Below, piece after piece: positions 16,773 through 39,325 of a stretch of 64,000 nucleotides of DNA. This DNA is from Cystobasidiomycetes sp. EMM_F5 (Eukaryota). Numbering within the stretch: the stretch's first letter is position 1; each line of letters starts with the position of its first letter. The stretch lies in the NCBI GenBank assembly GCA_051047955.1, contig JBPGPT010000005.1, positions 434,001 through 498,000 of the forward strand, given 5' to 3'. A model generated the notes under the pieces. That model was not told the DNA's origin. It saw nothing but the letters and a program-made list of their open reading frames with translations, and ran no database searches. The position numbers and the translations under genes are program-made.

Positions 16773-19700
16773 TCACTGTACGGGCCGTGCGATTGGCTTG
16801 ATCACAACGCCTGGCTTCGTAAGCACTTTTGGCGCAATCGCGTCTTTGAATGTTGCTCTAGTCGTCCATTCGTTTCCTGTAGGTTGTGCCATCTTCTGCT
16901 CGTACTGAGCAATACTTGTATACGGGTAAGGCAGATCCTTCGTCAGGTACTTCTGCGCCTTCTTGTCCACTCGTTCGGAGATAATAACGTTCTTGTATTT
17001 AGCGTCCTGACGCTTGCTAGCATCGACTCCGGGGATTTGCTTGACGATTTTCCTCGCATTCTTTTGCTTGCGAACGCCCTTTCCTCCCCAGCTACCCCAA
17101 CCGGGTAGAGTCAAATCTTCCTCTCGAGGTGCATCAGCTTCGATCTGAGCTTGTTTCAGTTCTTCAAAGTCTGCGACGACGTTGTCGCCTGCAAAAGCAC
17201 GCGCCACGAGATCCCGCTGCTTGAAAGCTTGCGGACCTTGCTTTCTTGCGACCGATTCCGGCAGGGCGTCCTCGTCATTGTCACTATTGCTGTCTCGATC
17301 GCCATCCGCATAAGCTTTCAGCGTGTCCGTCGCCTCGGCAATGTTACTGCTCTTCAATCCCCGCTTCCGCTTTCTGCTCGTCACTCCTTCTGCGACAACC
17401 GTATGAGGTGTTGCAGGCCCAGTTGCCGGAGTAGGTGTATCGAGCGCAGACGGATTAGCAATCAAGACTTTGTCCACATCAATCTCGATTGTGGCTTCGG
17501 ACTGCGCTGATGTCAGACCACGTTTAGTGCGCAACTTTCTACCAAGCTTGGCAGCTGACTTCTCCAGAGCAGTACCCGCCTGTCCGCCGGACACTTCATT
17601 TGTCTTGCGTGACAAGCGCTGACCATGAGACTCTCCGGGAGCCAGCCACGGATTGATCTCCTTACTCGCGTCTGAGCTTCCTTGTGCGAGTGAGGCCATC
17701 TTCGAAAAGGGGTTGTAATCCAGCAGAGTCGCAGAGGATGCAGCGGACGCAGAAGACGGAGCTTCGATGGCCACAATGCCGCTCGTTTTCGAGGTATGTC
17801 CGTCTTTACGTTTGCGCTTCTTGCCATTTGACCGGCTTGTCGTCACATCCTCCGCAGGAGCCGTCACGCTCGACTCGTTCTGCCCTCTAGTTGGTCCAAA
17901 CACCATCCGACCGGGGTTGCTCTTGACCATACTGCCGCCCGCCATTCTCGCATCAGGGGAAGCGGTGAAATCGTTATCGTCGCCGAGATCCTGCTCCAAG
18001 ACGGCTTTGAAATCGTCCACAGCGTCATGTAAACGTGCATTCTCCCTTGCCATGCCCTTTTGCATGAATTTCATGCCGAGCAAGCCTTTTGGTTTTACCG
18101 AGCTCGCCAATTCACCTTGATTTTCGATGTCGAGCCCGTCAAGCTCCTTCAATGTTGATCGATGTAGATTTTCAGAGTCATCGCTTTCATCTTCGTCATC
18201 GTCCACATCGGAAGGTTGCGAATCGTCCTCATCTTCGTCTTGTCCAAGGATCTTGCGTCTTAGCATTGCCTGAGTACTGTCACGTTTACGGATTGCTTCT
18301 TTGACATTGTCGTCCATCGCTTCTCCCGGACGTAGCGACTTGCTCCACCGCCCGCCTGCGCTTGCTGAGCCGGATGCACTTGCGTGCCGAAGCGTCGCAC
18401 GCTCACGAGCACGAAGTATTTCGAGTCGTTCACGCTCAGCTTGCGCCCGCTCGCCGCCATCGAGGGCATCGAGCTGCTGTAGCTCGTCAAGAGTCAAAGC
18501 ACCATCTTCAGCATCTCCATTCTTCAGTGCATCTCTCTCTCGCGACTTTTTGGCAATCTTACGGAAAGTTCGACTTTTGATTTTCGCTAAACGGGTCGCT
18601 TTCCGTTCTGCACGAAACATCAGGTCTCTCGCTAGTCGAAGTTGTGCGATCCGAGCATGATCGTGCGCTTTTGATGCTTCGCCGGCTTGCGGCAACGCCT
18701 CCATTAACGCAGATGTCTCGGTTGATAGCAAAGCTGATTGTGACATTCCAGTAGACGATATAAGGGAATCGATACGCTTCTCCAGGTCATTGCTTGGCTG
18801 CAACGTGATTAAGCAAAAATACGTCCATTCCGTCTTCCACGCGACTCACTTGATATTTGGCTATGAGCGATGCACCTGTTTCGCCTTTACTGACATTCTC
18901 TGTCTGGTAAGGCAAAACAAGACGCTGCTCAGTCTGATCGGCGCCATCCTTTGCGATGCCTCGCGCTGACCAGGGAAACCGCTGTTAGCCTACAAAACGC
19001 AGGCGCATTCCGAAACAAAATACACGCACTAGCCTTGACCGTATCGTCCCATTTGTGGATCTCGTCGTCCATTCGTTCTCTGGCAGCTTGCCGTTCAATC
19101 TTTGCCTGATGTAAAGGCGCAAGAGGTGCAGGAAGCGCTCCAGACATTTTTAGAGGGTTGCGTAATTTGGCATCCTGCTTTCGCTGTCGCTCTCGCTCCA
19201 ATATTGCCTTTTCTGCTGCCGTCAGTCGGGCGACTTCCTCGCCAAGGACCGTCGTATCCGTCTCCTTCCCGGCACTTGATGCATTGGCCAGAGGTTTCAG
19301 GGTCTTGCGGAGTGACGCGGCTTGTTCGCTTGGCAGGCCGCCGAGCAGCATGTCCAGTGTCAGTTTTGCTGCACAATCCACAAAGTTAGCTTGTGCAGCG
19401 TGCGAGGTACAATGTGGTCGGTGTCACACACCTCCGTTGCTATTCGTCACGGCAAATTGACTTTCGGGTATGATTTCAGTTCTTTCAGGCATATCTACGA
19501 GGCGTCGCTTCTTTCGTGTCGATGCCGATATGTCTGTGTCGAGTGCAGACCCCGCCTGTTTTGCTTGTCCGCCCGACGGCAATGACGATATGATTGCATC
19601 TAGCTTGTCGAGAGCAGCTGGGTCGTCTTCGATATCGCTATCATCAAGTTCGACATCTTCGCTTTCAGCTTCGTCGCTGTCGGAATATTCCTCTTCATCC

Positions 19701-20606
19701 TCCGATGCGGAGTCCTCCGCTTCCGACTCGACCGCATCGTGACCCGGTTTGAAGCCAAGTAGACCAGCATCGTCATTAGAAGGAGCTTGGTTGCCACGTT
19801 CTGAGTTTGTGGTCGATGGGGCAGTACTGCTCACGCCATGCTTATCCCACATATCGCTGAGTAGGACATACTCGCTGTCGGAACCGCCGTCGAGATTCTC
19901 CTCGTCTTCATTGGACGAAGCGCCATTAGACTGCAGACCGTTAAGTCGCCCACCGGCACGGACGTTCTCGTCAAGATCGATTTCAACGTTGTCGTCGTTA
20001 TCGTAAAAGTCGCTGGCAATCTGCAGGATGACGAGTGTCGAATGTAAGTCTAAGAGCCCTGCAACAGAACCTCGCCTTCTTGCGACTCACTTGTCGCTTC
20101 CGTTTGCCGGATTGACTAGGACCGGCTTGTGGCTGTTGACCACGTTTAGGCTTAACGACTGGCATTTCCTCTTCATGATCCGTAGAAGCAAGATCCGAGT
20201 CAATTTCCTCGTCATCAGTATCGTTTCCTGCTTGTTCTCCGTCTTCATCGTCCGAAGCCAACCCCAAGCGGAATTTTACTCTACTCAGGTCTGGCATGCC
20301 ATTGCCGTAGACTCCATCTTCGTCCTCCTCGTCGTCCAGCTGCCTAGCTTTTCCTTTGCCCTTGCCCGTGCTGCCTGCTTCTTCTCGGACAGCCTGCCGA
20401 GCATTTTTCAGTCGAGCTGCAGCTTTGCGAGCCCCGCTTCCCATCCCGGAGGCAGCCCTATCGAAGCTGTACACGTCTGAAGTATTCGCAGGCTCCTCCG
20501 ACTCCTGCTGAGCTCTGCCTTTGCCCTTGCCGCCCTTTCTGCTGGACTTTGTGTTAGCCGACAACAGGGGTTTTGGGGAATGCTTCATTGGGCGAGAGGT
20601 GCGCAT
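16773..20606 (-). CDS. UTP14: U3 snoRNA-associated protein Utp14
   Basis: KIKSRTFRKI, RARERATLRH, LPGWGSWGG, VIISERVDKK, LPYPYTSIAQYE, PTGNEW, TKPGVVIKPI. Confidence 0.96.
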
Positions 20607-20754
20607 GATGGCTTCAAAAGATGGACAGGGGGTAAGTCAGTGGTGCAGTCAGTTGGCAGAGTGCGAATGAAGGGACAGTCTTGGAAATTTGTGCAAGTCG
20701 TCGATCGTCGAAAACGTGAGCAACTTCGGCGTTATGCTTTGTATTGTTGCTCGC

Positions 20755-22144
20755 ATGCTACTCCGCAGAATGGCTCACCAAGCTGCAGTCGCACTCAAAG
20801 GCTGCAGTGGCCCAGCTGAGGCCAAGCTGGCTCAGACTGCTCCAGTCTCGTCGTTGGTCCTCGGCAATGATGTCGGCAGCGCGCCGGTTGCGTCAACATC
20901 AGCAATTCCAGCGACGATAGCTCCAGGGACGGCAGTGGATAGTCCCGCTCAGACCAGTTTACTACAAGAATCCGGAAAAACATCAAGCAAACGGATTAGA
21001 GCTGCTGGAGAGCTCGTCGACCTCACTTTACGCGCGGACAAGCTCGTAAAGCTGGAGGAGAATGTCGCAAACTTGAAGCCGCAACCCAAGCTGGCTTCAA
21101 TATTCACAAAAGCTTCATCGAATACACTGTCAAGTGGGCCAAGCTTGAAAGGCAAGGAGACGGCGGTGGCCCTCGAAGACACTCCATCGAAACGCAAGTT
21201 TTAGTACCATCCCCTTATGGCACGTCTGACGCGTTTCTTGTCCAACAGCAAGGTTTACTTGGCTCAAGAGCGATACCAGTGTCCTCTTGCATGGATTTTT
21301 CGGGAATCCACCACTGAATACGAAATTGGCTTGTTTCGATATCGAGTCAGTACTGAACGTGTCAGCCCGTAACGGGCTGTACGCTGAAGTGTCTCTGTGT
21401 GGAAGTGGTACCCTTATTCAAACGAAGTCTCGTGCAAGGTTTCCAAAAGGCGAAACGGATTGGACCTGGTGGTGTCCGGATGGCAAGGTGGAGAGCAGGC
21501 TGAGGGAGTACCACCAGGCTGGGTAAGGACCGCTAGACCTCGGTATTCTGTATATGTGCTAATATTCACATAAGATACGCTATAATATTCGTATCGAACC
21601 AAAACTACGCTCCTCATACGAAAGCGCATCAGTACTTCAAGGCGAAATTGCCGTTAATCGCAGCTACTGTAAGGCAGCGTTGACGGCGTACATGACTCAA
21701 TCGCTCACATATCTCCACATTCAGCTTGGAGATGTCCCCTTCCGCGTGTTTGCTGCTATCGCAAAAGACAATTACTATCGCAAGCCTGACATCGGCATAT
21801 GGCTCTTGCTGGACGAGATGGCACGTCGAGATGGTCTGGTCCTAGGTGAGGCAGGGCATCTTGAGATGAGAAAGTATCTCTAAGTTGCAGGACAAGCAGA
21901 CAAGTCGGCTTCGTTTTACGTGGGGGACGCCGCTGGCCGGCCTGCGTTTCCGAAATGCGCAAATAAGAAGCCTGGCACGCAGCCGGACCATTCTAGCTGC
22001 GATAGAGATTGGGCAGCAAATGCGGGAATAGCATTCTTCACTCCTGAAGAATTCTTTTGGGAGAGGAGGGATCTTGCTGTGCCTGCTCTACAGACTGTTA
22101 ACGCAAACCACGGAAACGCCGCCCGAATTCCAACCACTGGTTGA
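20755..22144 (+). CDS. DNA 3'-phosphatase (PNK3P HAD domain only, Tpp1-like)
   Basis: Spliced FDIDGTLIQTKS (intact DxD), YRKPDIGIW, FYVGDAAGRP, DHSSCDRDWAANAGIAFFTPEEFF. The stop follows about 25 codons later and no P-loop kinase domain is present. Confidence 0.9.
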
Positions 22145-22899
22145 CAGCGTGTGATTCATTGAGGTACTATATGCTTTACGTGTTGTTGCCATGTATTTCA
22201 AAAGTCACACGTATATATGGGAAAGACTGCCTCATTTGTACCACGGCCAACCCCAACTACGCATTATGTAGCATGCCCAAAATTACGCCCCTGCAGCTGC
22301 CTGCAATGTCTGCGACTGCACGCCGTTGGAGCTGGCTTCACTGTGCCCATCCTTGACCTTGCATGAATGTCTTTCAAGGAGCTGGACTAAAGCTATTCCA
22401 TTCCAACAACCGCAGAGACATTGACAGACTTGGACTATGCAGTCTAACTGTCTGTTAGTTGGGCGCAGCATATGCTAGCAGCCGCTGTTGGCTTCCGCAA
22501 TGGTTTTGTATGCGATATCGTACAGTCTCCACATAGCCCTACCCCTGCAGGAGGTCAAGGTCGCTGGTGCCGGCGCCGGTACCATGGCGACACCAAGGCT
22601 CAGACCAGTTCAGTGGCAGCGTCTGCGCCAACACTTCGCGCAGTTGCTAGACTGTGCATCTGTAGACATTGTCACTTGCGACTTCGCGTACACGGTCGCT
22701 CGCTTGGCAGTCCTTTACGTTGGCTACGCTTACAAGTCCCTAGCACATTCCCCTTACCGTCATCGATGGCACACTCGTCGCTGCGGGATCATCGCTCCCG
22801 ATAATTCAGCCCAGCAGTGAGTCTGTCGCGGCCATTCCGCCGGTAGCTGTAGCCGACTGGATCTGAGCTAACTTGCGCCTTCATACTCAGTATGCGACT

Positions 22900-25800
22900 A
22901 TGCCGGCGATACGTTCGGCGTGTTTAGCGTCTCCCGTCGCGAAAGGTATCGACAAGTCTCCTCATCAGGTGATAGACTTGACGTCCGGGTCACCCAAATC
23001 CACCCAGTCAACCCCATCATCACACCGCAGATCCACAGCGCCTTACGAGTCGCGTCACACGTCAGCACTCGCTCCATTATCTCCATCCAAGGGGGGCAAC
23101 AGGCATTCGCAATCAGCACAGCACAAGCCAAAAGGCGCCAAAAGAGGATCCTCGACTGCAATAGGCAATCTCCAGGGTACAGCAGTCCTATCTTCACAAC
23201 ATCTGTCTCAATCGCCTAAACGTAAGCGCAGTGCTTCGCGACCAAGCGCTACACTTGTCCGACCGGAAAATAAACGCCAGCCGCTCGTCATTGAGCTTGA
23301 TGACTCTGAGTCAGAATGTGACAACGACACTGTATCTCCACCCATCCTCAAACGCGCAGTCAAGCGGGTCAGGCATGAAAAGGCTGTTTGCGGCGACTCT
23401 GAGTCGCCAGTGGTCGGAGAAACCTCGGATTCACGGGTGTTCGGGGCTAGTCCAGGGCCGTACAGCATTACAGAACGGCCGTCTGTCAATGGCACCCAAG
23501 AATCACCGCTTCCAGATGCGTTGAGTGCACCTGATGATGACCTAGCATCCGAAGCTGCAGCAGACGTTGTCGCCCCTCAAATTGCTTCTACAGCCGTGGA
23601 TTCGGGATATGCAAGTGACCGTCCGTACATCATCACTGACGGACACGACTACTCATTTCTCGATATTCAACCCATCCTCCAAACTTATCCGCGCATTGAC
23701 GGACAGTATGGTGGAGATTTTCTAGTATTGGCGAATAATCCCGGCGGTGGGTTCTGCGGCTTCGCTGCAATTGCATTTTGTCTGTTCGGGAGCACGCGCT
23801 ACGCACCGTATATTCGAACGCAAGCATTGGCACAATTACATGCTGGAGACTTGGACGAGCACTGGCAAGACCTCTCGAACATGACTGTGACCACCGATGG
23901 AATCACCCTGCTCGAAATTGATCAGGATGTTAATGAATTCGCATCTGAGATGCTGCGGATGGAAGAGACTCTGCAAGCAGCGCCTGGAGAAATGGACAAC
24001 CTTCGCTACGGCTTCAAGGCCGACATGCGAGTGGAGGCGATGGGATTGATTGCGCGAGCCCTCAACCTGCATCTTCTGATCTTCCAGCCGCCTACCACAC
24101 AGCAAGGTGTGCAGCTCCTGTACAATATCCGTGCCGGTCCAGGAGCTCGACAAGTCTACCTGGAATTGGACATGGTCAATCACCACTATCGTGCACTAGT
24201 TTCGGCAACGGCGGTTCATCCTGCCGCAGCAACCGTAGAGAACGTGTCAGATGCTGAAGACTCTGCCGACATTTTTGGCATCCCTGGTGCAATCATGAAT
24301 GATAGCGACAGCGGATCAGACGACGAATATGAGCAAGACGATGATTTTGTGTGTGACGAGGTGCCTTCATCCAATGGACGCACATACGATGTCACTGGAG
24401 TTGATACCGCTGGAAACGAGAAATGCTCGTGTCCCACGGGTATGCCGACGGCTGAGTCTCTCATATCTGCTCTTGATAAGACCGTAGCCCAATGCTCTAC
24501 CCTACCGGAGTCCATGCCCGAAGATTGGAAGCGTAGTTTCGCATCCCATTTGCGGCAACTACCCGAAGCCTGTAAAGGCTGGTCTGGCTCATCCACATCC
24601 GAGTCCAAAGCGCAGGAAGATGAAGATACGTTCATCAAAGCAGAGCTAGCAAAGATAATCGAGAAGCGTCAACTCGATCCTGCTACAATGCACCGTTTCA
24701 AATCGTACACTGGCTCATGGCATGCACCGACTGGCTTGCACCTCTTCTATCCTCCTATCTACACTCCATCTACAAATACTCATATCCTGCAGGGGGGAAG
24801 CTGGACAATGAATAAATTTTTGGGCGCTGGGGTGACCGAGCAGACATTCGTGACAGACTCTTTTCCTTTCTCTTCGCCCATTCCGTACGGATCTAGCCAA
24901 CCAGCTATCGGGGATTCCAGGTTTACATGGGATTCTACCCTGACACCGGCCGCTACAGAGGACATTTGGTCCCTACTAAAACATCGTGTGTATCGCGTCC
25001 ACCTGGCTCGCCTTCGTCATCCCGGCATAGAGGTCGTTCTCGGGGCCCAGGCCAGAGAAGTCTATGACGCAGCCGCGCGAACACTGACGGATGGCTGGTT
25101 GCGGCACCGTATGATGGTACCGCTTACTATTCCGGCCGTAACATCTTCTGCTGGGCAGCATCCAGAGCAATTCATCACCGTACCCATAGATATTTTTTAC
25201 TGTGCAAAAGAAGGAAGCATGCAATGGGGAAAAATGGTGTGGCAGCATGTGCATCCGTCCAGTCATTCGCGAGGCATAGGCCGTGGCTCCCCAGTGTCAT
25301 TTGCAAACGCGGGGCTGTCGGTGAGTCGATGCCAAGCAAACGAATATATGAAACGGGACTGATGAATCATTCTGACCCCAGGACGCGCTCACTGAACTTC
25401 TGATACGTTTCAGCGCTGTGAACCCCGTCAAAGTACCGTGGTCGTCTACGTTTGCGTGGGAGGCTAGGCCTTCGACCTTCAAGCGTGCGCCGCATTATCA
25501 CCCACCTTTCCTCACAGCAATGCTGACGCGAGAGCGCCTGCGCGGCACGTCGTATACCCGGGACGAGTTGGAGGCGTTGGCACCTGGCCTTCTGGCACAA
25601 CTGGCACGCAGAATGCCTCTGCCCACAGATCTCGGCAAGTCTGTTCTAGAATCTTGCGTAAAGTGGCGGGCTCGCAAAGCTGCAATAACGAAGAAAACGA
25701 CCATGTCAAAAGTTGTCCCCAATCTCACTATCGCTCAAGCGGGAATGCTACAACCGTCTAAAGACGACCCTAACATGAGCGTGGCCCAAGCGATGGCTCG

Positions 25801-26704
25801 GAGAAAAGCCACGACAATGTCGAAAGACTACGAGGGGAAGACGGTGGAGGAGGTTGCCGTCATGAGAAGAGTCGCCAACTTTGCCGCAAAGCGTACGACA
25901 ATGTCGAAGGAATTCCCTCTTCTGACAGAGGCTCAAGTTAAACAGGCCCGTCGGAGCGCTCTCGTCAAGGACAGTGTAGATTGGAATGACGACCGGTTGA
26001 AGCCCTGGCTGGAGAAGACACGAGGACAGAAACCCCATGTTGTAGCCGCAGCAACAGCCCAGGTCGTACGCGCAAAGTTCGATATAGATACTCATGGCTT
26101 AACGACCCGTCTGCATGGCTTACCCACTGAGCTGGCCAACACCGACATGAAGAAGTGGAGTCTGACAGATATGGCGTATCTGGTTCTAGGCGTAGAGAGC
26201 GGACGAATTACTCCGGATTATTCTAAAAGCGGACGAACGGGCAAGACAGCTGCAACAGCTAAGCGACGCGTAACTATGTCGAAGGAGTATCCCCTTTTGA
26301 CCGAAGCGCAACTCAGAGTTATCAATCTATGTCATAAGGGAAACCCCCGGCGGCCTCTGGTGAAGGACCCCGTCGATTGGAACGATGCTCGCTTGAAACC
26401 ATGGCTGAAGCAGGCACAGGAATGTGAGACTTTTCGAAAGCTGTGTACGGCCACAGCGGCTACCATTGCAAGTCACCTACGCGTCACAGCCTACCTTCTC
26501 ATGTCGAAAATGAATGGATTGCCGGCTGAATTGAAGGGCACTACTATGGAGAAGCAATGGACCTTCGTTGACTTGGCATTCGTGGTACTCGGCGTCGTCA
26601 GTGGACGCATTACCCGAAAATCCAATGTCGTACCGCTACAGTCATCGTCCGGAAACGCAAGCAGCGACGAGGAGTCAGATGATGATGGTTCTGCCGACGT
26701 ATGA
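22900..26704 (+). CDS. Orphan multidomain protein of about 1250 aa: OTU-like domain + UDG-like fold + duplicated C-terminal module
   Basis: ORF 22873-25362 joins ORF 25418-26704 in frame via intron 25321-25381 (GTGAGT...CTGAC...CAG). Domain calls rest on motifs (see findings). Confidence 0.8.
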
Positions 26705-28131
26705 GTCAGTCCTTCAAGACCGCGGTACAGAATATTCAAGCTTGTGTGGGAGAGGGAGTTGAAGAGTATGGAAACGAGGAGCGTGGTATGTGCTGCCATG
26801 CGGGCTGGAGGAACCAGTAGTATCAGTGCTATGTAACATCAAAAAGGCTATTCAGCCAGTCAGGATTCAGGAACACAGACTTCATGCTTGTAGCATTAAA
26901 TGGGCTATTCAGCCATTCAGAAAGATTGCAAACATGCAAAATCTGCAGCATCTGCCAAACACGTATGGTCCGCAAAGCAAACGGGCTCGCAGCACTACTA
27001 ATGACTGATCCTGCCCACGTCCACAGCCACATCTTGTAAATACAAAAGCAAGTCTGCAGCAACAGTTGCCAGAGCTAAGGCAGGCATGCAGAAGAATCAG
27101 TCTACTTGCGAGTAGCATCCACGCCTTGGCAGACTTGTAGAGTGCTGACTATGGCAGTTTGCGTGCACGGCCGTACTATCGACAGCTCGTCGGGCTCTTC
27201 GAGGTCGTGACGACGGGCGCGCAACAAGACCCGATGACGACCAAGACGTGTCAGTACGTCAAAATCGTGCTGCAGCATGATTTTAGCAACCGTAGACTAT
27301 CTTGTTGCGTTCCTGTCGGCGTAGACACCGCTTGGACCAACTCGCGGTTATGCCAGTGCAGGCCAGCACGGAAAGGAGAGGAGACGGCCATGTCGACAGA
27401 ACCGAAAAGTGGGTCGAAGTGTGGAAGGGAGGGTGCTATTAGTCGTTTCAATCGTCCATGTCGTTATGTCGTTGTAAAGCGTGATGCGGTATCTGTATGT
27501 AAACAATACAAGCGATGTCGGAATGTCGGTATACGTGCTCATCTCGTAACAGCAGACAGGGAGCGACCCTACATATGTCGCTGCCATGCGATAGGCAGTA
27601 TAGAAGAGTGAAGCCTGCAATCTTGCTGGCTGACGAGGCGACAAGCCAGCCAGCGTCCGGTCTGGCAAACAGTCCACTCGGAGATAGCCTGAACATGACA
27701 GCAGCAAGTCAGCACACTGCTTTAGACAACAAGAGTGATGCAATTTCTACTCACTCCTCAGACCAGGCTGCCCCGACTGACGGAAATTACTCGGCTGTCC
27801 AGAGAGACTGAGAAGATCACTTGTCGCTGTATGGAGTCGTGTCGGCGACAACGGCAACTGATCGGAATGCTACGTGGGTAATGCAAGCCGACTGACGCGT
27901 GCAATGCTCACTGGAATCGCATGATTACATTGCATCTGTTGCAGTAGTGATAGTGCTCACTACCTTATTCAGTCTAATGCTATCAGAGCCAGCGGCAAAG
28001 CCAGCAGGCTTTGCAGACTTGTACTTGTGTTGACAATAAAGACGTCCTCAACTGACGCCCAAAGCAGCCTTCCACTGCCGCGCATGCTACCTGGATCAAC
28101 CTTGACTAGACGGGCGATCAATTGCATTTCA

Positions 28132-29090
28132 TCAACGCTGGAAAGCTCCCTCTTTCTTTACTCGTCCTGCAGCACCGGAGGGTTCTCGAACCTGGTAGCG
28201 ATACTCAGCAGGGACTTCAGGTCGTTGCATGAAGGACGCAAGGTCTAAAATCTGGGCGTTGCGGACGGGTCCATTCTGGCAGGTATCGACAGTGTGGAGA
28301 AAGCCTTTGCATTTTGAGCACACCATCTTCAACAGCAAAGCTCAGCGAATGGATGAGAGACATAGGTCAAGAACGTACTCCGTTGTGATGCAGAACATTG
28401 TATAGTTCCTCCCAGGTAATCCATCCACCGTCCTTAGTGCTGCGGCAGTTTACAGCCCAGTGTTTGTGCCCAAAGCATTTTGCGCAACGAGTCTTGTCGG
28501 CTCCGTTCTGTGAAACAGATGCAAGTCAGAGCATGTATACGTTCAATGTATCAACGCCTTACAAGTAGGAGTTGGCCAGGATACTCGACCACTTCAGCTT
28601 GGTCCAGTGCGTGCTCTCGATAGGGATTGTAAGGTGCTTCTGCGCGAGGGGCGTTGCGGTTGTTGCCAGTAGTTTGATTGAAATGCCTGACGTCTGCATA
28701 CTGAACACTGTGAAATTGCTGACCGGGCATGTCTTGATTCGAGCTCGTTGCCGCAGGCGGGAGGGAAGGCGAGTCAACTTTGACATGATGGACGAGCTCG
28801 ATACGTTCAGAGGGACGCTGGAATGCGGGAGGCTGGTGCAGCATTGTGTTTGCAACCGAAGCTGGCTGATGAGCGGCAGCGAGAATAGTTGCCATAGCCG
28901 AAGCTACAGCCGGCGAAGGAGTAGAGGCGTGGGAGTGCATGTGGTTGTGTGTGTTGTATGGAGTAGGAGGAGGAGGAGGCGCACTACCATACAGGCTACC
29001 ATTATAGGGATGACCACTCGAATGCAAAAGCGCCTGGGCAAATTCAGACAGCCACGGCTGAGCCATGACTAGGTACTGTGAAGGTGGCAT
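28132..29090 (-). CDS. Pro/His-rich protein with two CCHC zinc knuckles (3 exons)
   Basis: Spliced reading gives CAKCFGHKHWAVNC and CSKCKGFLHTVDTC, both CX2CX4HX4C; GT-AG introns keep the frame; TATA-like TATAAA upstream near 29230. Confidence 0.75.
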
Positions 29091-29343
29091 TGCAACGTAT
29101 TAGCTGCTTGTCATATGTAGTGTGGATGGGGAGGTATAGGAGGTACGAGCCGTACCTTTGGTTTTTGCAAGAGACGTTTCCTTGGGAAGGAAGGAAGACA
29201 AGCCGTAAAGAAAAAATGTGTGCGCTTTTATACCTTAGGCAACGCTTTGTCGCCAACCCTGATCGTCTAGTCAGTTTCATTGCAAATTGCCGCACATTGG
29301 AAGAGCCGGCCTGAGCGCCCATAATGTGAGCGGAGCTACGCAG

Positions 29344-29455
29344 GAGCGTCAGAGCGTAGGAGCGTAAGAGCGTAGGAGCGTAGGAGCGTAGGAGCGTAGG
29401 AGCGTCAGAGCGTAGGAGCGTCAGAGCGTAGGAGCGTAGGAGCATCAGAGCGTAG
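29344..29455. repeat. 8-bp tandem repeat (GAGCGTAG with GAGCGTCA/GAGCGTAA variants), 14 copies
   Basis: Units counted directly from the sequence. Confidence 0.97.
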
Positions 29456-30280
29456 GGTACCCGGCTATCTCGCGGGTGCACCTATCGCAGGCGCTGTACT
29501 CGCGAGAGGTGGGTATCAAGGCATGATAGGCTTTTCTGGTAGGCAGAGACTGGTCTACCAGATTCTAGATGTTTTTCTGAAGCGCTTCACGTCTGTCAGG
29601 GGGAATTCAGACTCTCGGAGTGCTGTTCGCCTTGATGGCAAGATTTATGAGTGAGCAAACGCCTAACGCCTGTTCTCGAAAAGCTAACGCACGTGAACGG
29701 GACTGCAGTGGATCGCCGCATTTTCGTCAAGCTATAACGAGTTCATACGAAGAAAAGTACCCGAGTCGTAACGCCGGCAGTACAAGCAGTCATACATTAT
29801 CCTGCACCTTTAATCGTTCTAATTGCGTTGACCGTTGGAGTCAATATTGTGAAAGCAGGCTCGCGTTTGAGGGGGAATCGGAGTGAACGATGGTAACAAT
29901 ATCTAACGTCACGGAACCTGCCTACGACGCACCCGATACAAGCTTTCCGGATGCAAGTTCGAGAGGGTTGCGCTTTTTAGTGGACGTCTATATCCTGCCT
30001 CCGCTATAAATGGCTTCCGTACATAATTACAGATCTCGGGGCCACGCTCGACTTTCGAATTTCGCCACCTTGACGAGGGTGTGAGTACAGCGACATGCGC
30101 AGAACAAGTATGACGACCGTGCGATTGGTCACTACAGCGTAATAATGTTTGACATGACAGCGTGGCTGTTGTTTTCGTCACTTTCGCCAGCAGCACCGCC
30201 TACAGAATCCATTACTAGGTCAGATGTTGGCCGTCTGATGTTGTCTCCCCACTCAATCCGTACACGCATCCCTGTATATC

Positions 30281-30839
30281 ATGGCTTTCGCTCATCCATC
30301 AGTAAATTCGTATTATGTCCCACAGGCTCCACTTCTTCCAACACAAATCGCACCCGTTATGCAGCAAGCACCAGTGTATACTCAACAAGGTTTACATGGT
30401 GCACACAACGTAAACCGTTCTCGCTTGTAAAGGAGACTAGAACGCTTATTGTCCAGTTCAACAGCCGCATATACAGCAAGCCCTATCCGTGAAGGCTCAT
30501 CCTTATGCACAGCCTGTGGTTGCGGGCTCAGTAGCTGCCATACAGCAAGCGCAGAAGATCAGGAAAGGTGCAATCACTCATGCGAAGCTGCTAGGACTGT
30601 GGCGATTGGCTTTGCAGGAAGCTGGCGCGGATGTCAAGAAGTATGGTGATGTGATAGGCCACACGCCATCGAGCTTCCATTTTAACGAAAAGCCAAGAGT
30701 CGAAAATGCCAAGCTCATTTACGCAAAATTGCATCTAGAGGAGACAAGGTCAAGCTCTACAGCAGCAGCAGCTTTCCCGCATACGTCAGCGGGCAATGGC
30801 TCGGCCGTCGCTATCGCTGCAGCCGGTTCAGCTGCTTGA
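30281..30839 (+). CDS. Small hypothetical protein with Gln/Pro-rich N-terminus (3 exons)
   Basis: MAFAHPS|APLLPTQIAPVMQQAPVYTQQ|VQQPHIQQALSVKAHPY... splices in frame into ORF 30489-30839; TATAAAT near 30005. Confidence 0.6.
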
Positions 30840-31260
30840 CGAAGATTGAAGTAGCCTGGACTGGGTTTGAAAGGACTGCGGTCTTGCTGTCCAATCGTAT
30901 GTTATGACCGTCATAGTATCAATGGAGGTAGATAGCGCAAACCTCTGCGCAGCTTACTTTGCTCCCTACCGGACATTATTGTTTGCATGCGCCACCTGCC
31001 TTACACGGAGTGAACAGTCTACCTATACAAAACAATGCGCCCAGTCAACGTGAAGCCTACTTCCCTACTCCCCTTCGCCTGCGTTCGAGTGTCGGCATTG
31101 CTGAGGCATATGAGGCTGTAATACAGCTGAGGATTGAGTTCTGTGCTATGTTACCTGTCAGGTCCATCATTGACCAATGCATTCAAGCAATGCTGACATA
31201 CGTACTGCAGAAGCACTTTTGCGGTGCTGCCTGCTCTCGACGTAGTGGCTACATATCGGT

Positions 31261-32618
31261 CTACGTAATATGCTCAGCCCTCCGTTCTGATAACTGCATC
31301 TGAGAACTCACACTGTCACTGTCAATATCGGTGTCAGTATTGCTGCTAGCAGACCCTCGGCTTCGAGCTAGTGTCGAAGCTGGTGGTTCTACCCGACGAC
31401 TGCTCGACATAGACGGCACGGGAGACGGAAGGTCGTTGACACTGCTGGAGTTAGAAGACTGGGACGAAGTCGTCGAGGAGGATGCACGACTGCTGTTATA
31501 TTGAGAAGAGACGCAGGAACGAGAGTCATCCTCATCATCGCAACTCTGACTGTCGCAGTCAAAGGCGTCCGAGCTATCACTTTCACTGGAATTTGCACTT
31601 TGATTGTCCTGAGATGTGGCTGTTGACAGATTCTCGGTACAGGAGCTGCTTGCATCAGAGGTCGAATCAAAGTCACTGGCGTCACGGCTAGAGTCCGTTT
31701 CTTCACCGTCGCGTGGTCCTTGCGGAAGTATTCTGATGCCCGAGCGTCTCAGTACTACGCCGCTCCGATATTTGAATCTATACGTCATCAGACTCAAATG
31801 GGGCTCGGTATCTTCAAGCGTCTGCAAGTTCACCTGAGCGTGAACCACGGGGCGTCCTTGTCAAAATACATCCAATCGACAACGTGCCGCCGCGGTGCCC
31901 TCTCACTCTGTCCATATTGAACGTAATGTTGGATTTTCTTCGGAATCACATCCGGGGAGATCGACTGATCAGACTGCGAATCAAAATGTTAGCTGGAAGT
32001 TGACAACCCTAATAACATGACAGACCGAAGCATAATTTCCGAGCTGAAGATACTCGTCTTCCATAATGCCGCGGTAGAACTTGAGCACAATGCTGTGTAA
32101 CGCGTCAATCTCTCAGATGTCGACGACAAAAGCATGCTGACCTACGATCCCATCTCATTTGACGCTGTCTTCCTCTTCCGCCTATCCGCAAGTTCGGAGG
32201 TCTGTGCTCTCGCCTAGGCGGACATCAGCAATAGTGAACATCAGCAACAGGAAACAGCATGCATTGTATGATGACACGTAGACACCTTGGCGAACATGTA
32301 CGGCATAATCGATCTGTCAGAATCATAGATCCCTGCACTAATCAGGTTCTCGCCGCGCTGTCTGGTGTTCTTGATGGGGATGCCGTCCACCCGTTGACCG
32401 TCGATGTAAACGTCACAAGCAAGATCTGGCCAGCCGGGATCGCGGGTGCGCCAGTCTCGTATCACGATTCGGAAAAGTGTAGATTCTTCGGATTGTACAT
32501 AACACGTACTGTCCAGACTTGTCGCCTCCGATGGGTATTCGATGCATTCGAACCAGTCTTCCTCAGGCCCTTCGCGCAGTATCTCTATACGAGCACCGAT
32601 AGAATGCATCCGTACCAT
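31261..32618 (-). CDS. Fungal DUF7918-like protein with Ser/Asp-rich tail
   Basis: Spliced motifs CYVQSEESTLFRI, DVYIDGQRV, PYMFAK, GSIVLKFYRG, PWFTLRFKYRS match a fungal domain of unknown function that I recall as DUF7918 (unverified). Confidence 0.65.
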
Positions 32619-33681
32619 TGTAGCTTGGAAATGCTCTTTTTAACGAGTCAGTAGTAATAAACAAAGCAGAGGCGAGAGCGGGAAACCTCTCCTCTCATCC
32701 TGTAGCAAAATGAGCATATGTTGACAGTCTGAGCACGGGTCGTCGAGCGCCTTAGCCACCGCACGAGCCTAGCTGCCAAAGGACTTGATTGGTGGATCAA
32801 GCACAGGCCGCTTAGCAGTTCTCAGACTGCACAGATTTCAGCACGAAGTGTTCCTCTCGATCACAGAAGTGGTCAAAACATCCAGCCAGCCCTGGACTCA
32901 GCCCTGGACTCAGGGAGTAAAATCGTGACCCAGACATGATCTGGATTGATGGGATTCACTGTGCACATGTAATTTTGCTCACCTACAGAGCATAGGTAAA
33001 GTCGGACAAAATGTTGCATATGCTGTGCTTTCGGTATTCTACATACTTAGTACAGCCTGCACGCAAGGCCCCGTCTTGTCTGACGTGGTTTGAACGTCTC
33101 TTTACTACCGTTCAACGTACGCGACATTCGAGATGCCCAGCGCGCCTCATAACACCAACGGGAACATCCGCGCGCTCCGCGACAATTCTCAGTGGGAGAC
33201 GGACGGCGCTGGAGCAGGCGAGGTCGATGAAGTACAGCACACAGAGTTACTCTGCATATGGCGCTATGCTTTGCTGCGTTACGGAGCCGATTACGATCGA
33301 TATGGCGACCGCATTGGCTACGTTCCATCAGCAATTCACTTCATCGAGCAACCGAGGGTAAAATCCGCTGCCAGACTGTTTGATCACATTTGCGATAAGC
33401 GAAGACAGAGACGTAGTCCAGATGTCAGGGAAGCTGTTTGTTAAATTCGACGACGAAGATGAGGGCATGCACAGGGTTGAAGAGGTAAAGGTCAGGGAGA
33501 CTGTATCAGGGAGGAGGGCGGACACGAATATAGGAATAGTTCACAGGTGGTCACGGCTAGTTAGCCAACTAGCAGCATGGTTATCCATGTAGAGTATTTC
33601 CGCCGAGCTCGCTAGTACCCGAAGGTGTTTCCGTATGCCATGCTCAATCCAAATCGTCTGGTCGCACAGGCCGCCTGCACA

Positions 33682-35628
33682 ATGGCAGAGTCCGGCAGGC
33701 TGGATGGCCCTGCTCTCGATGGCTTCAATGCCGACGTATCTTTGACTCGACCAAGCTCATCACCTAGTCGAGGACCCGTCAGAACTCTGAGTGGTCGAAG
33801 TCGGAGTTCACAGCAGAAGCGGCAGCAGACATCCAGCGGTAGGCTTCTAACGTCGGAGCCAGCGGCTGATGTTACTGATAGCGACGGGCTGCCATCAGCT
33901 GTTGGTGGAAAATCATCCCATGGAAGAAGATCTTGCTGATATTTGATGATAGAATCCGATAAACGATGGCACACAGACACCCGCAGAGTCTGAGGCTGAG
34001 CTCATGGCTAAAGCTACGTCGAAAGTCAGCGGTCTACGTATGAGGTGAGTCGGACTTTGTGGCACTCATTGTCCACTCTGTAAACTTATTTCGTGCAGGA
34101 TCATGAGGTTTACCCCGAGTTGGTTCAGTGTGACCATGGGAACAGGTGGGTCTTACTGTGAGACGACTCTCTTTACCGCACTCAGACAGCGCTTTTACAG
34201 GCATCTGCAATACGCTGCTTTTCCTTCTGCCATGGCAATCTACGCATGCAGTATTTCGAGCCATTGGACTGGCTTTCCTCCTCCTCGACATTATCCTCTT
34301 TGCTATCTTCATCTCTATGACGGTCGCCCGATACGTGCTCTATCCCGAAATATTCATGGCCATGCTATCCCACCCCGTGCACAGCTTGTTCTTGGGCACC
34401 CTGCCAATGGGATTTGTAGTATGTTCCAATGTTAGAAGTTTTCTCCTTACCTTGATGCTAACGACATCTTGCTTGCTAGACTATCGTATCCGGAATAGCC
34501 TTCCAGGGTCATGAGTATGGCTTGCGAGGCTCCGTCCAGGCCGCCGCCGGTTTATGGTGGCTTGCGTTAGTGCTGTCGTGCGCAACTGCGTTTATGGTGC
34601 CCTTAGCCATGCAGACGACGCAGAAACATACAAGCGAGTCTCTGACCGCGGCTTGGCTACTTCCCATTGGTGAGTGACATGCCACGTCAAATCTGCTGAA
34701 TTGACAGCTTATTGGCCATGTAGTCCCACCAATTACTGTTGCGGCCTCGGGATCTACCATCTCTGCGTTACTGGTAGAGAGCGATCCAAACTACGCATTG
34801 ACGATCTGGATTGCCTCGTATTGCATGGCCGGTATCGGCACGTTGACAGCTTCCATGGTCCTGGTTTTGTATTTCCAGAGACTTGCATTACACCACATTC
34901 CTGGTCGGGAAGTAGTCGTCTCCACGTTTCTTCCGCTTGGACCCTGCGGGCAAGGTGGATATGCGATTCTCCAGCTTGTAAGCCGTATTGAAATTACGTT
35001 ATAGAGCACAGGCTCACGTGTACGGCAGGGTCGCGTCTCTAGAAGTCTGTTCCCAGTCATATCCTCGATGAATGCCGGCGGAAATGACGGTCTGGCAATT
35101 CTGTCAGAGACTGCCACTCCGCTATACGCAATCGGTATTTTCGTCGGACTGCTCGTCTGGTCTCTTGGTGTGTGGTTCACCTTCTTGGCGGTTGCAACCT
35201 TGATCATCCAGCGCAGAAATGGTACTATTGGTTTTGTGAGTGCTGATCAACCCTAAGTAGCACGGTTTCTAACGATGGCGCTAGTCTATGGGCTTTTGGG
35301 GATTTACCTTTCCTCGTAAGTTCCCTGTGCGGTGCTCTTCCAGCATATTACTGACAATATGATGCTGCCAGTTGGCTCGCTGAACCTCTTGACCTATGCG
35401 CTGGCGCAGACCTTTGATTCCATGTTTTTCAAGGTCGTCGGTACCATTATGACATTCTCGGTGGTGTCATTGTGGGCGGCGGTCTCTGTACCTACTGTGA
35501 TCGGGTTCTACACGGGGTCCCTCTTTCCTGCTCCGTGTCTCATCAAGCTGCCGAATCTTCTGAATGAGGCGGAGGGGGAAAAGGGTCGACAGACTGAGAA
35601 TGGCTCCACACTCAATGTCAGTAAGTAA
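33682..35628 (+). CDS. SSU1: TDT/SLAC1-family channel (sulfite efflux Ssu1 / malate transporter-like)
   Basis: FTPSWFSVTMGTG, HPVHSLFLGTLPMG, LTAAWLLP, STFLPLGPCGQGG, GFWGFTFP; multiple transmembrane helices. Confidence 0.9.
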
Positions 35629-35701
35629 GTAAGCTGAATATGGGAAGCAATGTAGCGAGTAGCCAGCAGCCCGCATGTATAAGCCTGATACCAACTGCAT
35701 A

Positions 35702-36847
35702 TCATTGTGCATTCTCCTTTAGATATTTATACACAACACTGAAATCCTTGCCATTGTAGCGCGAGTCCGCTTCGACTTGTTTATACAGATCGAGGGCTAC
35801 TGTGGACAGCTTGCTCAACCCACCGGTCACGGCATTCGTGCTAGATGCTATTGACTGGTCGGATGTAGAAGCCACTTTTCCCGCCTCCATCTCTGCATCT
35901 AATGCTAATTGCAGATCTTTGCGCATCAAGCCGATCCCAAACCCGCCTTCATAGTCTCTGCTCGCTGGTGCATTTGGGAGTACGCCCGGAACGGGGTTGT
36001 TGGACTCGGACGGCCAGCACTTCCCCGTCGAGGTATTTAGCACTTGTGCCAGGACGTGTGGATCCAGCCCCAGCTTCTGGCCCAGCAGCATGGCATCACA
36101 CGTCGCTAGATTTGTCATTGCTAGAGCGTAATTGTTGGCCAATTTGGCTGCCAGACCTGCACCAGCGTAATTCCCGCATACGACTGTTCGTTTCCCCATG
36201 ACGGACAGTAGTCTTTCGAGAGTTTCTCGCTGGTGATCTGACAGACTGGGAGGATGTGAGACCATAAACGTCAAAGTACCTGCCGTGGCTCCTATCACGC
36301 CTCCAGAAACGGGCGCGTCAACCAGAGTCGCTCCGGCATTGGATATCTCTCTGGCGAGCTCGACTGTAGCAGCTGGCGATATAGTGGAAGAGTCGATGAA
36401 CAGCTTGGAAGTTATAGAAGACGAGGAGGATGGAGATATGAACGGTTTGAAGACGTCTTGGACGTGCGAAGTATTCGGAAGCATTGTTATTATCGTGTCA
36501 GACTTGTCGATGCAGTTTGTAGACGATATGGCGATATCCGCATGCGGGACGTCTTTGCGGAACGCGTCGAGGGCGGGTTGCATCACATCAAATACGGAAA
36601 GAGTATCGGCAGATGAAAGTGACTTTGCCAAGTTGACTGCCATAGGGTATCCCATCCGACCGAGACCTGCTCGCGTCGAGATTTCTCAGCTGAAAGGCAT
36701 ACCGGGGAGGCATAGATGATTTCCAGACACACCTATGAAGCCATACGCTGCTCTCGCTTGCCTGGATATTGATATTCCACGTCGGCCTTGAAGGACCGGT
36801 GCGGCCGCGGTCATTACCCGGCGACCTTCTCGACGAGCTACGGACAT
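35702..36847 (-). CDS. HIBADH: 3-hydroxyisobutyrate dehydrogenase, mitochondrial
   Basis: Presequence-like N-terminus, then GFIGLGRMGYPMA, IDSSTISP, DAPVSGGVIGA, AAKLANN, NNPVPGV, LMRKDL, KDFSVVY. Confidence 0.95.
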
Positions 36848-37087
36848 GGTTCAAATTGGAGGAGGAGGGTGGGATTCCAGAGCAGGACGGGACATGCATG
36901 CATAGACTAGAATATCATTGCAGATGGCTGCAGTTCTAAACTAACGGTGACTTTGCTCGTTGTCAAGGGTCGCCACGCCGTAATTTTGCGAGACCAGCGA
37001 TTGGCCGATCCCGCTGGCCTTACTTTCTCTTTACGCTGGCAGCACTGAACTCAGACTACCACCAATATCAACTTCTGATACTCCGCC

Positions 37088-39325
37088 ATGACTGTCGCGA
37101 TGGCTTCCCTCAGCACCGCCAATCTCGCTGCCTTCAGGTCTTCCTGCCCGTACCTCGCTCGAACTTCGTCGAAATCGCTGCGGTCAATGAGCACCGTCGT
37201 ATCGCTGCACGGCATTTCCAGGCTCAGAGCGACTGCAGAGGCTTGGTGAGTTGCGATAGTATGCTCAGTCTCCGTAGCATACTCACCCTGACCTTGTCTC
37301 CTCCTCTCTGCGAAATTCCATCAGCCCGATCTTGGGTCCTGTCCTCGCAACCAGAGCGCAACAGCTCGGCCTGGCTTCCAAAGGAGCAGCAAGAGGGTAT
37401 GCTGCAGTCGCTGACAGACGCACTATCGACGAGATACATCGCAAGGAGGGCGTGCAGGTGAAGCCTGGTCAAGGTGGGACATGCCCCCACGCCGCCGCCG
37501 GCATTGCTGCAGCAAAGAGGGCACAAGAACTGGCCAAAGAGACGGAAGAGGCGCGCATCTCGTCCAACGTGACTTCCTTCGAGAGCCCTACGACGCTCGA
37601 GAATGCAACTATTCCATCCCATGCCTCCACCTCGACCCAGTCGGCCGGAGCGGCCGCTGCTCTCCGCATGAATCGAGCAAGCTCTTCTTTCGATTATAAT
37701 GGTTTTTACGCTGAAGAGCTGGACAAGAAGCATAGAGACAAGTCATACAGGTTTGTCGTACTTTCTTGCATTGGTCCATCGCTTGGGTCTTTGCAGCCAG
37801 CAACGGCTTCGGACGGCACTTCCCCGGTGCCGTTGCCACCATTGTCTTGACATCTTGCTGACTCCGCGACTTCTCGCACAGATACTTCAACAACATCAAC
37901 CGCATAGCCGATAGATTCCCTATCGCGCATACCGGAGCTGCCAATGAGGTTGTCGTCTGGTGTTCCAATGACTATCTCGGCATGGGCCGGAATCCAGCAG
38001 TACTCGATACCATGAAGCAGACATTGTCTCGCTACGGAGCTGGAGCAGGTGGTACACGTAACATTGCCGGCAACAATGCTCTTCATCTGGCATTGGAGGA
38101 TGAAGTTGCCGACCTCCATCGCAAACCTGCCGGCCTCGTCTTTTCTTCTTGCTACGTCGCCAACGATGCAGTTCTGGCCACTCTTGGCAGTAAGCTGCCC
38201 AATTGCGTCTACCTCAGCGACGCATCCAATCACGCTTCCATGATTGAGGGCATCAAGCACTCTCGGGCACAAAAACTCATCTTCAAGCACAACGACCTGG
38301 TAGATCTCGAAGCTAAACTCGCAGCCCTGCCTCGCTCGCAACCAAAAATCATCGCTTTCGAGTCTGTATACTCCATGTGCGGATCTGTGGCGCCCATCGA
38401 AGCGATCGTTGAGCTCGCTGAAAAGTACGGTGCCATCACCTTTTTGGACGAGGTACACGCCGTTGGTCTGTATGGCAAACGCGGTGGAGGTGTCGCAGAG
38501 CATCTCGACTACGACTGGAACTATGCTGCGGCCAAGAAGACTGGAGCAAAGTCCATCATGGATCGGGTGGACATGATTACCGGAACACTCGGCAAGGCAT
38601 ATGGTTGCGTCGGAGGTTACGTCGCTGGCTCATCTGATCTGATCGACATGATTCGCTCATATGCCCCTGGTAGGTTGAAAGGCATCCATCCATGACTCAA
38701 TTTCGCTAAATATGCTGTTTTGACAGGCTTCATTTTCACTACTTCGTTGCCACCAGCTACTGTAGCAGGCGCAACGACCTCGATTGCTTACCAGAAGAAC
38801 ACGACGAGCGACCGCCGCTTGCAGCAGGTCAACACACTGGCAGTCAAGCAGCAGCTTGCAGATCTTGATATCCCCGTCATCCCTGGACCTTCACACATCG
38901 TTCCTGCCCTTGTCGGAGATGCCGCCGCCGCCAAAGAGGCATCCGATCTTCTTCTCGAGAAGCACGGAATCTATGTCCAGTCTATCAACTATCCTACCGT
39001 AGCGCGCGGCGAGGAACGACTCCGCATTACGCCTACTCCGGGACATACTGTTCAACAACAGCAGCATTTGGCTTCCGCCCTCAATTCCGTCTGGGACGAG
39101 CTCAAGCTGAAGCGCACTTCAGACTGGGCATTGATTGGAGGCCGATGCGGGGTTGGAGCTGCCAATCATGTTCCAGTACCTAGGATCTGGTCAGACGAGC
39201 AGCTCGGACTCCTTGATGGAACCGCACCAGTTGCTCTGAACTCTACCGATGCTGCCACCGAAGCTATCCCAGCCAATGCGCTGTACCAAAGACAAAGCAG
39301 TCAGGCTGTAGCAGCTAGCGCGTAA
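37088..39325 (+). CDS. HEM1: 5-aminolevulinate synthase, mitochondrial
   Basis: CP heme-regulatory motifs (SCPY, CPVL, TCPH); [42 protein letters not shown]. Confidence 0.98.

Follow-up and report, generated by a model that had tools for sequence, protein, structure and literature searches.

A divergent OTU-type peptidase domain and an uncharacterised alpha/beta domain joined in one predicted protein of the yeast Cystobasidiomycetes sp. EMM_F5

OTU-type cysteine peptidases and uracil-DNA glycosylases (UDGs) are the closest described systems to the gene reported here. OTU domains are borne by Helitron/Helentron transposons as well as by large DNA viruses. In UDGs, motif A (G-x-x-P-x after strand 1, reading GQDPY, GINPG or GEAPG) bears the catalytic or activating residue, while motif B is an H-P-[SA] string that follows the last core strand. 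We know of no organism in which the sensing of base state is coupled to the editing of ubiquitin in a single polypeptide. The gene described here lies on the plus strand, at 22900..26704, of a 64,000-nucleotide stretch (hereafter the window; positions 434,001 to 498,000 of contig JBPGPT010000005.1, assembly GCA_051047955.1) from Cystobasidiomycetes sp. EMM_F5, a little-studied leaf-surface basidiomycete yeast. Its predicted product carries a divergent OTU-type domain (family A) and an alpha/beta domain for which a UDG-like fold is a candidate (family B). What appears to be new here is a divergent OTU clade joined to an uncharacterised family in a fusion that is so far unique.

Two long open reading frames (ORFs) are found on the plus strand at this locus: 22867..25362 (831 codons), the longest among the 32 window ORFs that reach 200 aa, and 25376..26704 (442 codons). 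A previous reading of this DNA, made from its letters and ORF translations (the sequence-only reading), had proposed that the two form one gene through an intron at 25321-25381, and the join proved exact. Exon 1 (22900..25320, +) contributes 807 codons from the ATG at 22900, corresponding to residues 1-807 of the full protein (P0015). The 61-nt intron (25321..25381, +) starts with GTGAGT, contains CTGAC at 25372-25376 and ends with AG at 25380-25381, and exon 2 (25382..26704, +) then continues in frame from 25382 for 440 codons and a stop. When the exons are joined, they encode 1247 aa with a single stop, at the end, and an exact look-up showed this spliced product to be identical to KAL7008875.1, a GenBank "hypothetical protein" of Cystobasidiomycetes sp. 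EMM_F5. If the intron is retained, translation ends at the stop at 25360-25362 and gives an 820-aa product (P0003).

The database gene model is not independent RNA evidence, because gene prediction for EMM_F5 relied on funannotate, run ab initio on Illumina DNA alone (PMC12697161). That origin leaves some room for the alternatives of two separate genes, one for each ORF, or of a pseudogene. Three observations argue against it. First, a protein of Cystobasidium minutum (P0018) matches aa 512-924 in a single BLASTP segment (E-value: 1e-30) that crosses the junction between residues 807 and 808 in frame and is gapless there, NAGLS/DALTELL (the stroke marking the junction) pairing with DALFSDALLQVL. 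Second, the splice signals are canonical and the frames join exactly. Third, exon 2 offers no ATG of its own before residue 855 of the spliced product (P0016, the ORF caller's translation of this exon, begins MLTRERL). We consider separate genes or a pseudogene very improbable: one two-exon gene encodes a 1247-aa protein, its predicted splice being backed by homology across the junction. The order of the parts along this protein is also the one that had been claimed, with a basic N-terminus followed by a Cys/His domain, an acidic linker, an alpha/beta domain and a repeated basic C-terminus.

When residues 230-807 were searched with HMMER against 1.84 billion representative proteins (E ≤ 1e-3), 12 matches were obtained: the protein itself, seven proteins with the second domain only (P0004-P0007 and P0009-P0011) and four with the first domain only (P0008 and P0012-P0014). 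The two domains occur together in none of the 11 non-self matches. Further second-domain proteins, P0018-P0022, came from a profile search, and a word-indexed search using aa 230-807 from exon 1 returned only the protein itself. Nothing relevant to an architecture that combines OTU with UDG or another glycosylase was found in the openly accessible literature, and the protein is annotated as hypothetical only; the view that this architecture has no described precedent is borne out to that extent. Both domain families are narrow in spread, and their fusion is unique in the databases searched. Relatives other than P0018 come from short contigs and their lengths may be cut by introns or contig ends, so only P0018 can firmly be called a stand-alone protein.

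Two observations on these relatives are recorded separately. P0014 (a family A fragment of 227 aa) and P0019 (a family B fragment of 275 aa) each come from a Logan contig of 1546 bp; if this is the same contig, then families A and B would be neighbours, or fused, in a second organism. A locus from a metagenome scan with P0007 (L001) was discarded as spurious, as the match covers 21 residues and no other family B protein matches it.

The family A domain spans aa ~248-457 (23641..24270, +). It is approximately 210 aa in length, with a cysteine near its N-terminal end and a histidine near its C-terminal end. The family motifs are NNPGxGxCGxAA and, about 140 residues further on, H-[YW]-x-A-[LM]. 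In the window protein these correspond to NNPGGGFCGFAAIA, which contains C286 (codon 23755-23757, +), and NHHYRAL, which contains H429 (codon 24184-24186, +). In an alignment of the window domain with its four relatives P0008, P0012, P0013 and P0014 (alignment A2), C286 is invariant in all five rows, and the histidine motif is present in all four rows that extend to it (P0014 is truncated), the window protein reading H429-Y. Among protein language-model neighbours, 20 of the 30 matches belong to PF02338 clusters (score 0.90, with 177-178 features in common), and the nearest clusters are OTU proteins of Nucleocytoviricota. The top PDB profile match is OTUD5, with the cysteine aligned (E-value: 0.51), and the motif pattern is itself OTU-like. 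All three of these are weak leads.

PF02338 was looked for in bacteria as a source of reference sequences and was found in none of 401 genomes and in none of 14 controls; the reference set came from viral contigs instead. For comparison of profiles, 33 viral loci with an OTU cysteine box were fetched and 16 diverse sequences were chosen, 10 of which pass the Pfam OTU cut-off. Using hhalign, A2 matched the full set of 16 with Prob 96.3 and P 1.9e-9 over 135 columns, and the 10 Pfam-verified sequences with Prob 86.7 and P 4.4e-6 over 118 columns (P 9.7e-6 when the window row was removed from A2). In this alignment C286 coincides with the cysteine of DGNC, and H429-Y with the catalytic HY pair. 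Controls gave no comparable signal: against the 10 verified sequences, A2 reversed gave P 0.2, all 10 column shuffles of A2 gave P ≥ 0.45 and the family B alignment (A3) gave P 0.076, while A2 against UDG sets gave P 0.48-0.94.

Several results weigh against this assignment. The window domain by itself does not match the 10 verified sequences significantly (P 0.0097), so the OTU claim rests on the family profile. Scans of Pfam, PHROGs and NCBIfam assigned no family to any domain of the protein or to any relative; the PF02338 hidden Markov model (HMM) in particular gave no match at E ≤ 1 with the full protein or at E ≤ 10 with any of the five family A members, and a single-sequence PDB search with exon 1 returned nothing. 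Apart from these results, a conserved third catalytic residue is not evident in the five rows: the residue three positions before the cysteine is G, Q, D, R or L, and that two positions after the histidine is R, D, Q or E. Taken with the profile match, the aligned cysteine and histidine and the null controls, the evidence supports aa ~248-457 as a predicted divergent member of the OTU peptidase superfamily with an apparently intact Cys/His dyad, and the proposal of an OTU-like protease made in the sequence-only reading is retained.

The family B domain (aa 512-924, 24433..25732, +) spans the intron. Three helices form its N-terminal part; an alpha/beta core comes next, and then a C-terminal extension that it has in common with P0018. 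Strings conserved in the family are RFKRPTGS, LFYPP, GPDTT.RML.AGL, DLYPFST.IP, F..D.T, PG.EVV.G and FGK.V..H.HP[C/S]; among the family motifs, the window protein carries RFKSYTGS (24694-24717), LFYPP (24742-24756), TDSFPF (24853-24870), GIEVVLGA (25024-25047) and HVHPSS (25246-25263), all on the plus strand. D678, R704 and P745 are invariant, and D653 nearly so. Thirteen sequences went into an AlphaFold model whose query was residues 504-909 of P0015 (pLDDT 60.5, pTM 0.59). Its confidence is reasonable for the three N-terminal helices and for the core at aa ~650-785, poor after aa ~790 and low in the LFYPP stretch (pLDDT 35-49).

The modelled elements run in the order strand, LFYPP loop (of low confidence), two helices, D653 strand, long helix, GIEVVL strand, helix and final strand. 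This succession is what would be expected of a UDG-type core into which a beta-meander has been inserted. The final strand (model E270-280, aa 773-783) is directly followed by H785-P-S, and H-P-[S/C] is present in all six intact rows that reach the site (the window protein, P0018, P0004, P0005, P0017 and P0007); its equivalence to motif B is one of position only and not of residue-level superposition. When the model was ranked against 48,161 representative structures, UDG-superfamily chains took ranks 1-3, 5, 7 and 8, and in a second list they took ranks 1-6, with matches that span most of each target of about 190 residues.

Against a UDG-like fold stand the following results. All of the UDG rows score best when the low-confidence stretches of the model are retained. 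A Foldseek search of PDB and BFVD gave nothing at E ≤ 1e-3, and its weak top rows are NTF2-like or cystatin-like. Comparison of A3 with bacterial UDGs using hhalign was not significant (P 0.087 for seven family-4 sequences and 0.28 for 34 sequences, the reversed control giving 0.52), other UDG sets gave P 0.26-0.48, and hmmscan gave no match at E ≤ 10 with any family B member (13 sequences). A motif A of the G-x-x-P type with a polar catalytic residue is absent from family B, in which the corresponding place reads L-[FW]-[YFW]-P-P; the domain contains no string resembling GQDPY, GINPG or GEAPG, whereas such strings are present in the bacterial references. PDB sequence searches with exon 2 returned only ribosomal protein S8 (E-value: 0.0093, chance level), and PDB profile searches with family B and the C-terminal repeats gave coiled-coil and odorant-binding matches, likewise at chance level.

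One alternative is that family B is unrelated to UDGs and is a new alpha/beta domain whose binding partner is a protein or a small ligand. In that case the whole protein would be an OTU protease, lineage-specific and fast-evolving, with targets unrelated to DNA bases. We regard both the separate origin of family B and this account of the whole protein as unlikely, though they deserve serious consideration. The predominance of UDG chains in the two ranked lists speaks against a separate origin, as does the occurrence of HP[S/C] at the motif B position. The hhalign path, non-significant as it is, is nonetheless in topological register, pairing LFYPP with GEAPG, RML.AGL with LD..L..iGl (the helix after motif A), DLYPF with vYvTN and EVV.G with lV.lG. 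On balance, we treat the family B core as a candidate for a UDG-like fold, with roughly even odds of true homology. Of what had been suggested for this domain, the fold is suggested by the model ranks, the order of elements and the position of HP[S/C], but no significant relation in sequence, no motif A and no Foldseek match at E ≤ 1e-3 were found.

If the fold is taken at face value, the protein might also be a bifunctional enzyme: an OTU deubiquitinase coupled to family B as a catalytically active glycosylase acting on DNA. Besides the UDG-like features of the model, the polar residues of family B are compatible with such a function, since D653, D678 and R704 are invariant or nearly so and are joined by H785 in the HP[S/C] loop. 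The same-strand upstream neighbour (21230-22144, +), about 750 bp away, is a strand-break-repair enzyme, a DNA 3'-phosphatase of the PNK3P (Tpp1/PNKP) type, found as three consecutive exon-like frames with PNK3P Pfam matches at E 6e-4, 3e-5 and 2e-14 covering profile positions 9-161. Gene adjacency is of little weight in fungi. Set against these points, none of the UDG families tested shows a relation in sequence to family B, and the catalytic or activating position of motif A reads [FW]-[YFW]-P-P. A hydrophobic residue or a proline at this catalytic position makes an active glycosylase less likely, and we judge the bifunctional enzyme improbable.

More speculative still, family B could represent a new, eukaryote-only branch of UDGs in which the asparagine of strand 2 that specifies uracil has become an aspartate (D653). 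Fused to an OTU domain and to DNA-binding repeats, it would sense the state of a base and edit ubiquitin on nearby chromatin or repair proteins. In such a branch, the replacement of Asn by Asp would imply that a cytosine-type or otherwise modified base is read or excised. We give this idea a small chance only.

The remaining parts of the protein flank and connect these two domains. The N-terminus (aa 1-240, 22900..23619, +) is of low complexity and rich in Ser, Pro, Thr and Gly, and it contains basic clusters that by sequence resemble nuclear localization signals: PKRKR at aa 106-110 (23215-23229, +) and KRAVKRVR at aa 151-158 (23350-23373, +). An acidic linker, DSDSGSDDEYEQDDDF (aa 468-483, 24301..24348, +), lies between families A and B. 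Two tandem modules of about 115 aa each follow family B. Module 1 (aa 975-1085, 25883..26215, +) reads TMSKEFPLLTEAQ...DWNDDRLKPWL...LGVESGRIT, and module 2 (aa 1099-1219, 26255..26617, +) is 50% identical to it over 121 columns. The string TMSK occurs four times in the C-terminal region, aa 925-1225 are basic (50 K+R against 30 D+E), and the protein ends with an acidic tail, DEESDDDGSADV (aa 1236-1247, 26666..26701, +).

These modules had been described as tandem and helical. The tandem repeat is real, given the 50% identity, but the helical character comes only from a single-sequence AlphaFold model of exon 2 that, at pLDDT 38, is unusable. A word-indexed search with exon 2 gave no match among proteins of 242-770 aa, and an atlas search for look-alikes of aa 960-1225 gave no usable match. 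From aa ~924 onward, no relatives and no Pfam, PDB or atlas match were found, and this counts against the reading put forward next.

The reading that we put forward, at slightly less than an even chance, is of a five-part, lineage-restricted protein that acts in the nucleus as an OTU isopeptidase directed to DNA or chromatin, with its UDG-like fold, location, binding and activity all predicted. The basic clusters of the disordered N-terminus would send the protein into the nucleus, where family B and the basic repeats would bind DNA or chromatin. The pocket of family B, closed by the conserved HxHP[S/C] loop, might hold a flipped or modified base. With the protein tethered in this way, the OTU domain would be placed where it can strip its neighbours of ubiquitin or of a ubiquitin-like modifier.

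The genomic setting bears on a further alternative, namely that the gene came from a mobile element or virus, or still belongs to one. PMC9741609 describes Helitrons that sometimes include OTU domains. The nearest language-model clusters of family A are, as noted above, OTU proteins of Nucleocytoviricota, and both domain families are sparse (11 non-self matches in 1.84 billion representatives). The local DNA points the other way. In 18000-38000 there are no inverted repeats, and direct repeats are limited to a tandem array of an 8-nt unit and two short matches present in two copies each; no terminal or long terminal repeats were found in the local DNA. No part of the gene is duplicated elsewhere in the window, and GC content is flat across the locus (~0.50-0.55). 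Neither the protein nor the 22 neighbouring ORFs scanned, among them those for aconitase, Utp14, Syf1, a WD40 protein and PNK3P, gave a match to a Rep protein, helicase, integrase or transposase.

The flanking genes are housekeeping genes of an ordinary fungal chromosome. In addition to the PNK3P-type gene, they encode an R3H+RRM protein (4348-6558), a WD40 protein (7796-8677), aconitase (9165-10511), Utp14 (16773-18845), a 3-hydroxyisobutyrate-dehydrogenase-like protein (35702-36685) and Syf1 (50053-51246). An origin from a mobile element or virus is, in our estimation, a slim prospect. Such an origin had been raised in the sequence-only reading and finds no support in the repeats, copy number or flanks of the local DNA; the domain calls made there were largely right, with the UDG-like fold standing as a candidate.

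The 9 kb downstream of the gene (26705-35700) contain no frame of at least 200 aa, and genes in this interval are probably intron-rich or of low complexity. An exon of an SLAC1-type anion channel is found at 34134-34514, and a Ser/Asp-rich frame without a Pfam match at 31261-31860 (-). The 8-nt tandem array consists of about 18 units of GAGCGTAG/GAGCGTCA at 29320-29463.

If these assignments are correct, the gene would reveal a clade of highly divergent OTU peptidases missed by family HMMs, together with an uncharacterised domain family of red yeasts that possibly extends the UDG fold into new sequence space. Their natural fusion would suggest that both domains cooperate on DNA or chromatin. 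Should family B prove not to be UDG-like, the locus would still be a clean, lineage-restricted multidomain gene that is annotated as "hypothetical" only.

Among known systems, family A is most similar to the OTU peptidases (PF02338, clan CA), such as human OTUD5 (3tmo) and the OTU proteins of large DNA viruses. The profile match spans the whole catalytic core, with the G-x-C of family A aligning to DGNC and its H-aromatic pair to the catalytic HY. Family A differs from these proteins in that it lies below detection by the Pfam HMM, in that its cysteine box is NNPGxGxCGxAA rather than DGNC[LF][FY]RA, and in that an aspartate is found three residues before the cysteine in only one of its five members (P0012). 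A second class of deubiquitinase, the viral tegument-like (VTD) type, was considered for family A and rejected. As described in PMC9741609, VTD enzymes are sparse, papain-like deubiquitinases that also occur in fungi and transposons, and the class is defined there by an invariable Asp-x-His. Family A has no conserved aspartate two residues before its histidine, and the PDB search matched OTUD5 rather than VTD entries.

The closest structural comparison for family B is with family 4 UDGs and UdgX (1l9g, 4zbx and 6ail). In contrast to these enzymes, family B shows no significant sequence relation and no GEAPG-type motif A, and it has D653 where the non-significant hhalign path places the asparagine of beta2. 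It also adds N-terminal helices of about 90 aa, a beta-meander insert and a C-terminal extension of about 130 aa. Family B is not filed as a member of the UDGs. In two of the bacterial reference loci, L085 (G004) and L087 (G003), a family-4 UDG forms the C-terminal part of a protein of about 490 aa with a long N-terminal extension; this bacterial fusion is unrelated to the yeast gene.

A true homologue of aa 512-924 is P0018 (P389DRAFT_41940 of Cystobasidium minutum MCA 4210, XP_066824981.1), which is 26% identical over 413 residues, those encoded by exon 2 included. Unlike the window protein, P0018 is a stand-alone protein of 439 aa with neither an OTU-like domain nor C-terminal repeats, and it is equally uncharacterised. 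Fusions such as the one in Cystobasidiomycetes sp. EMM_F5 are useful guides to the function of stand-alone homologues of this kind.

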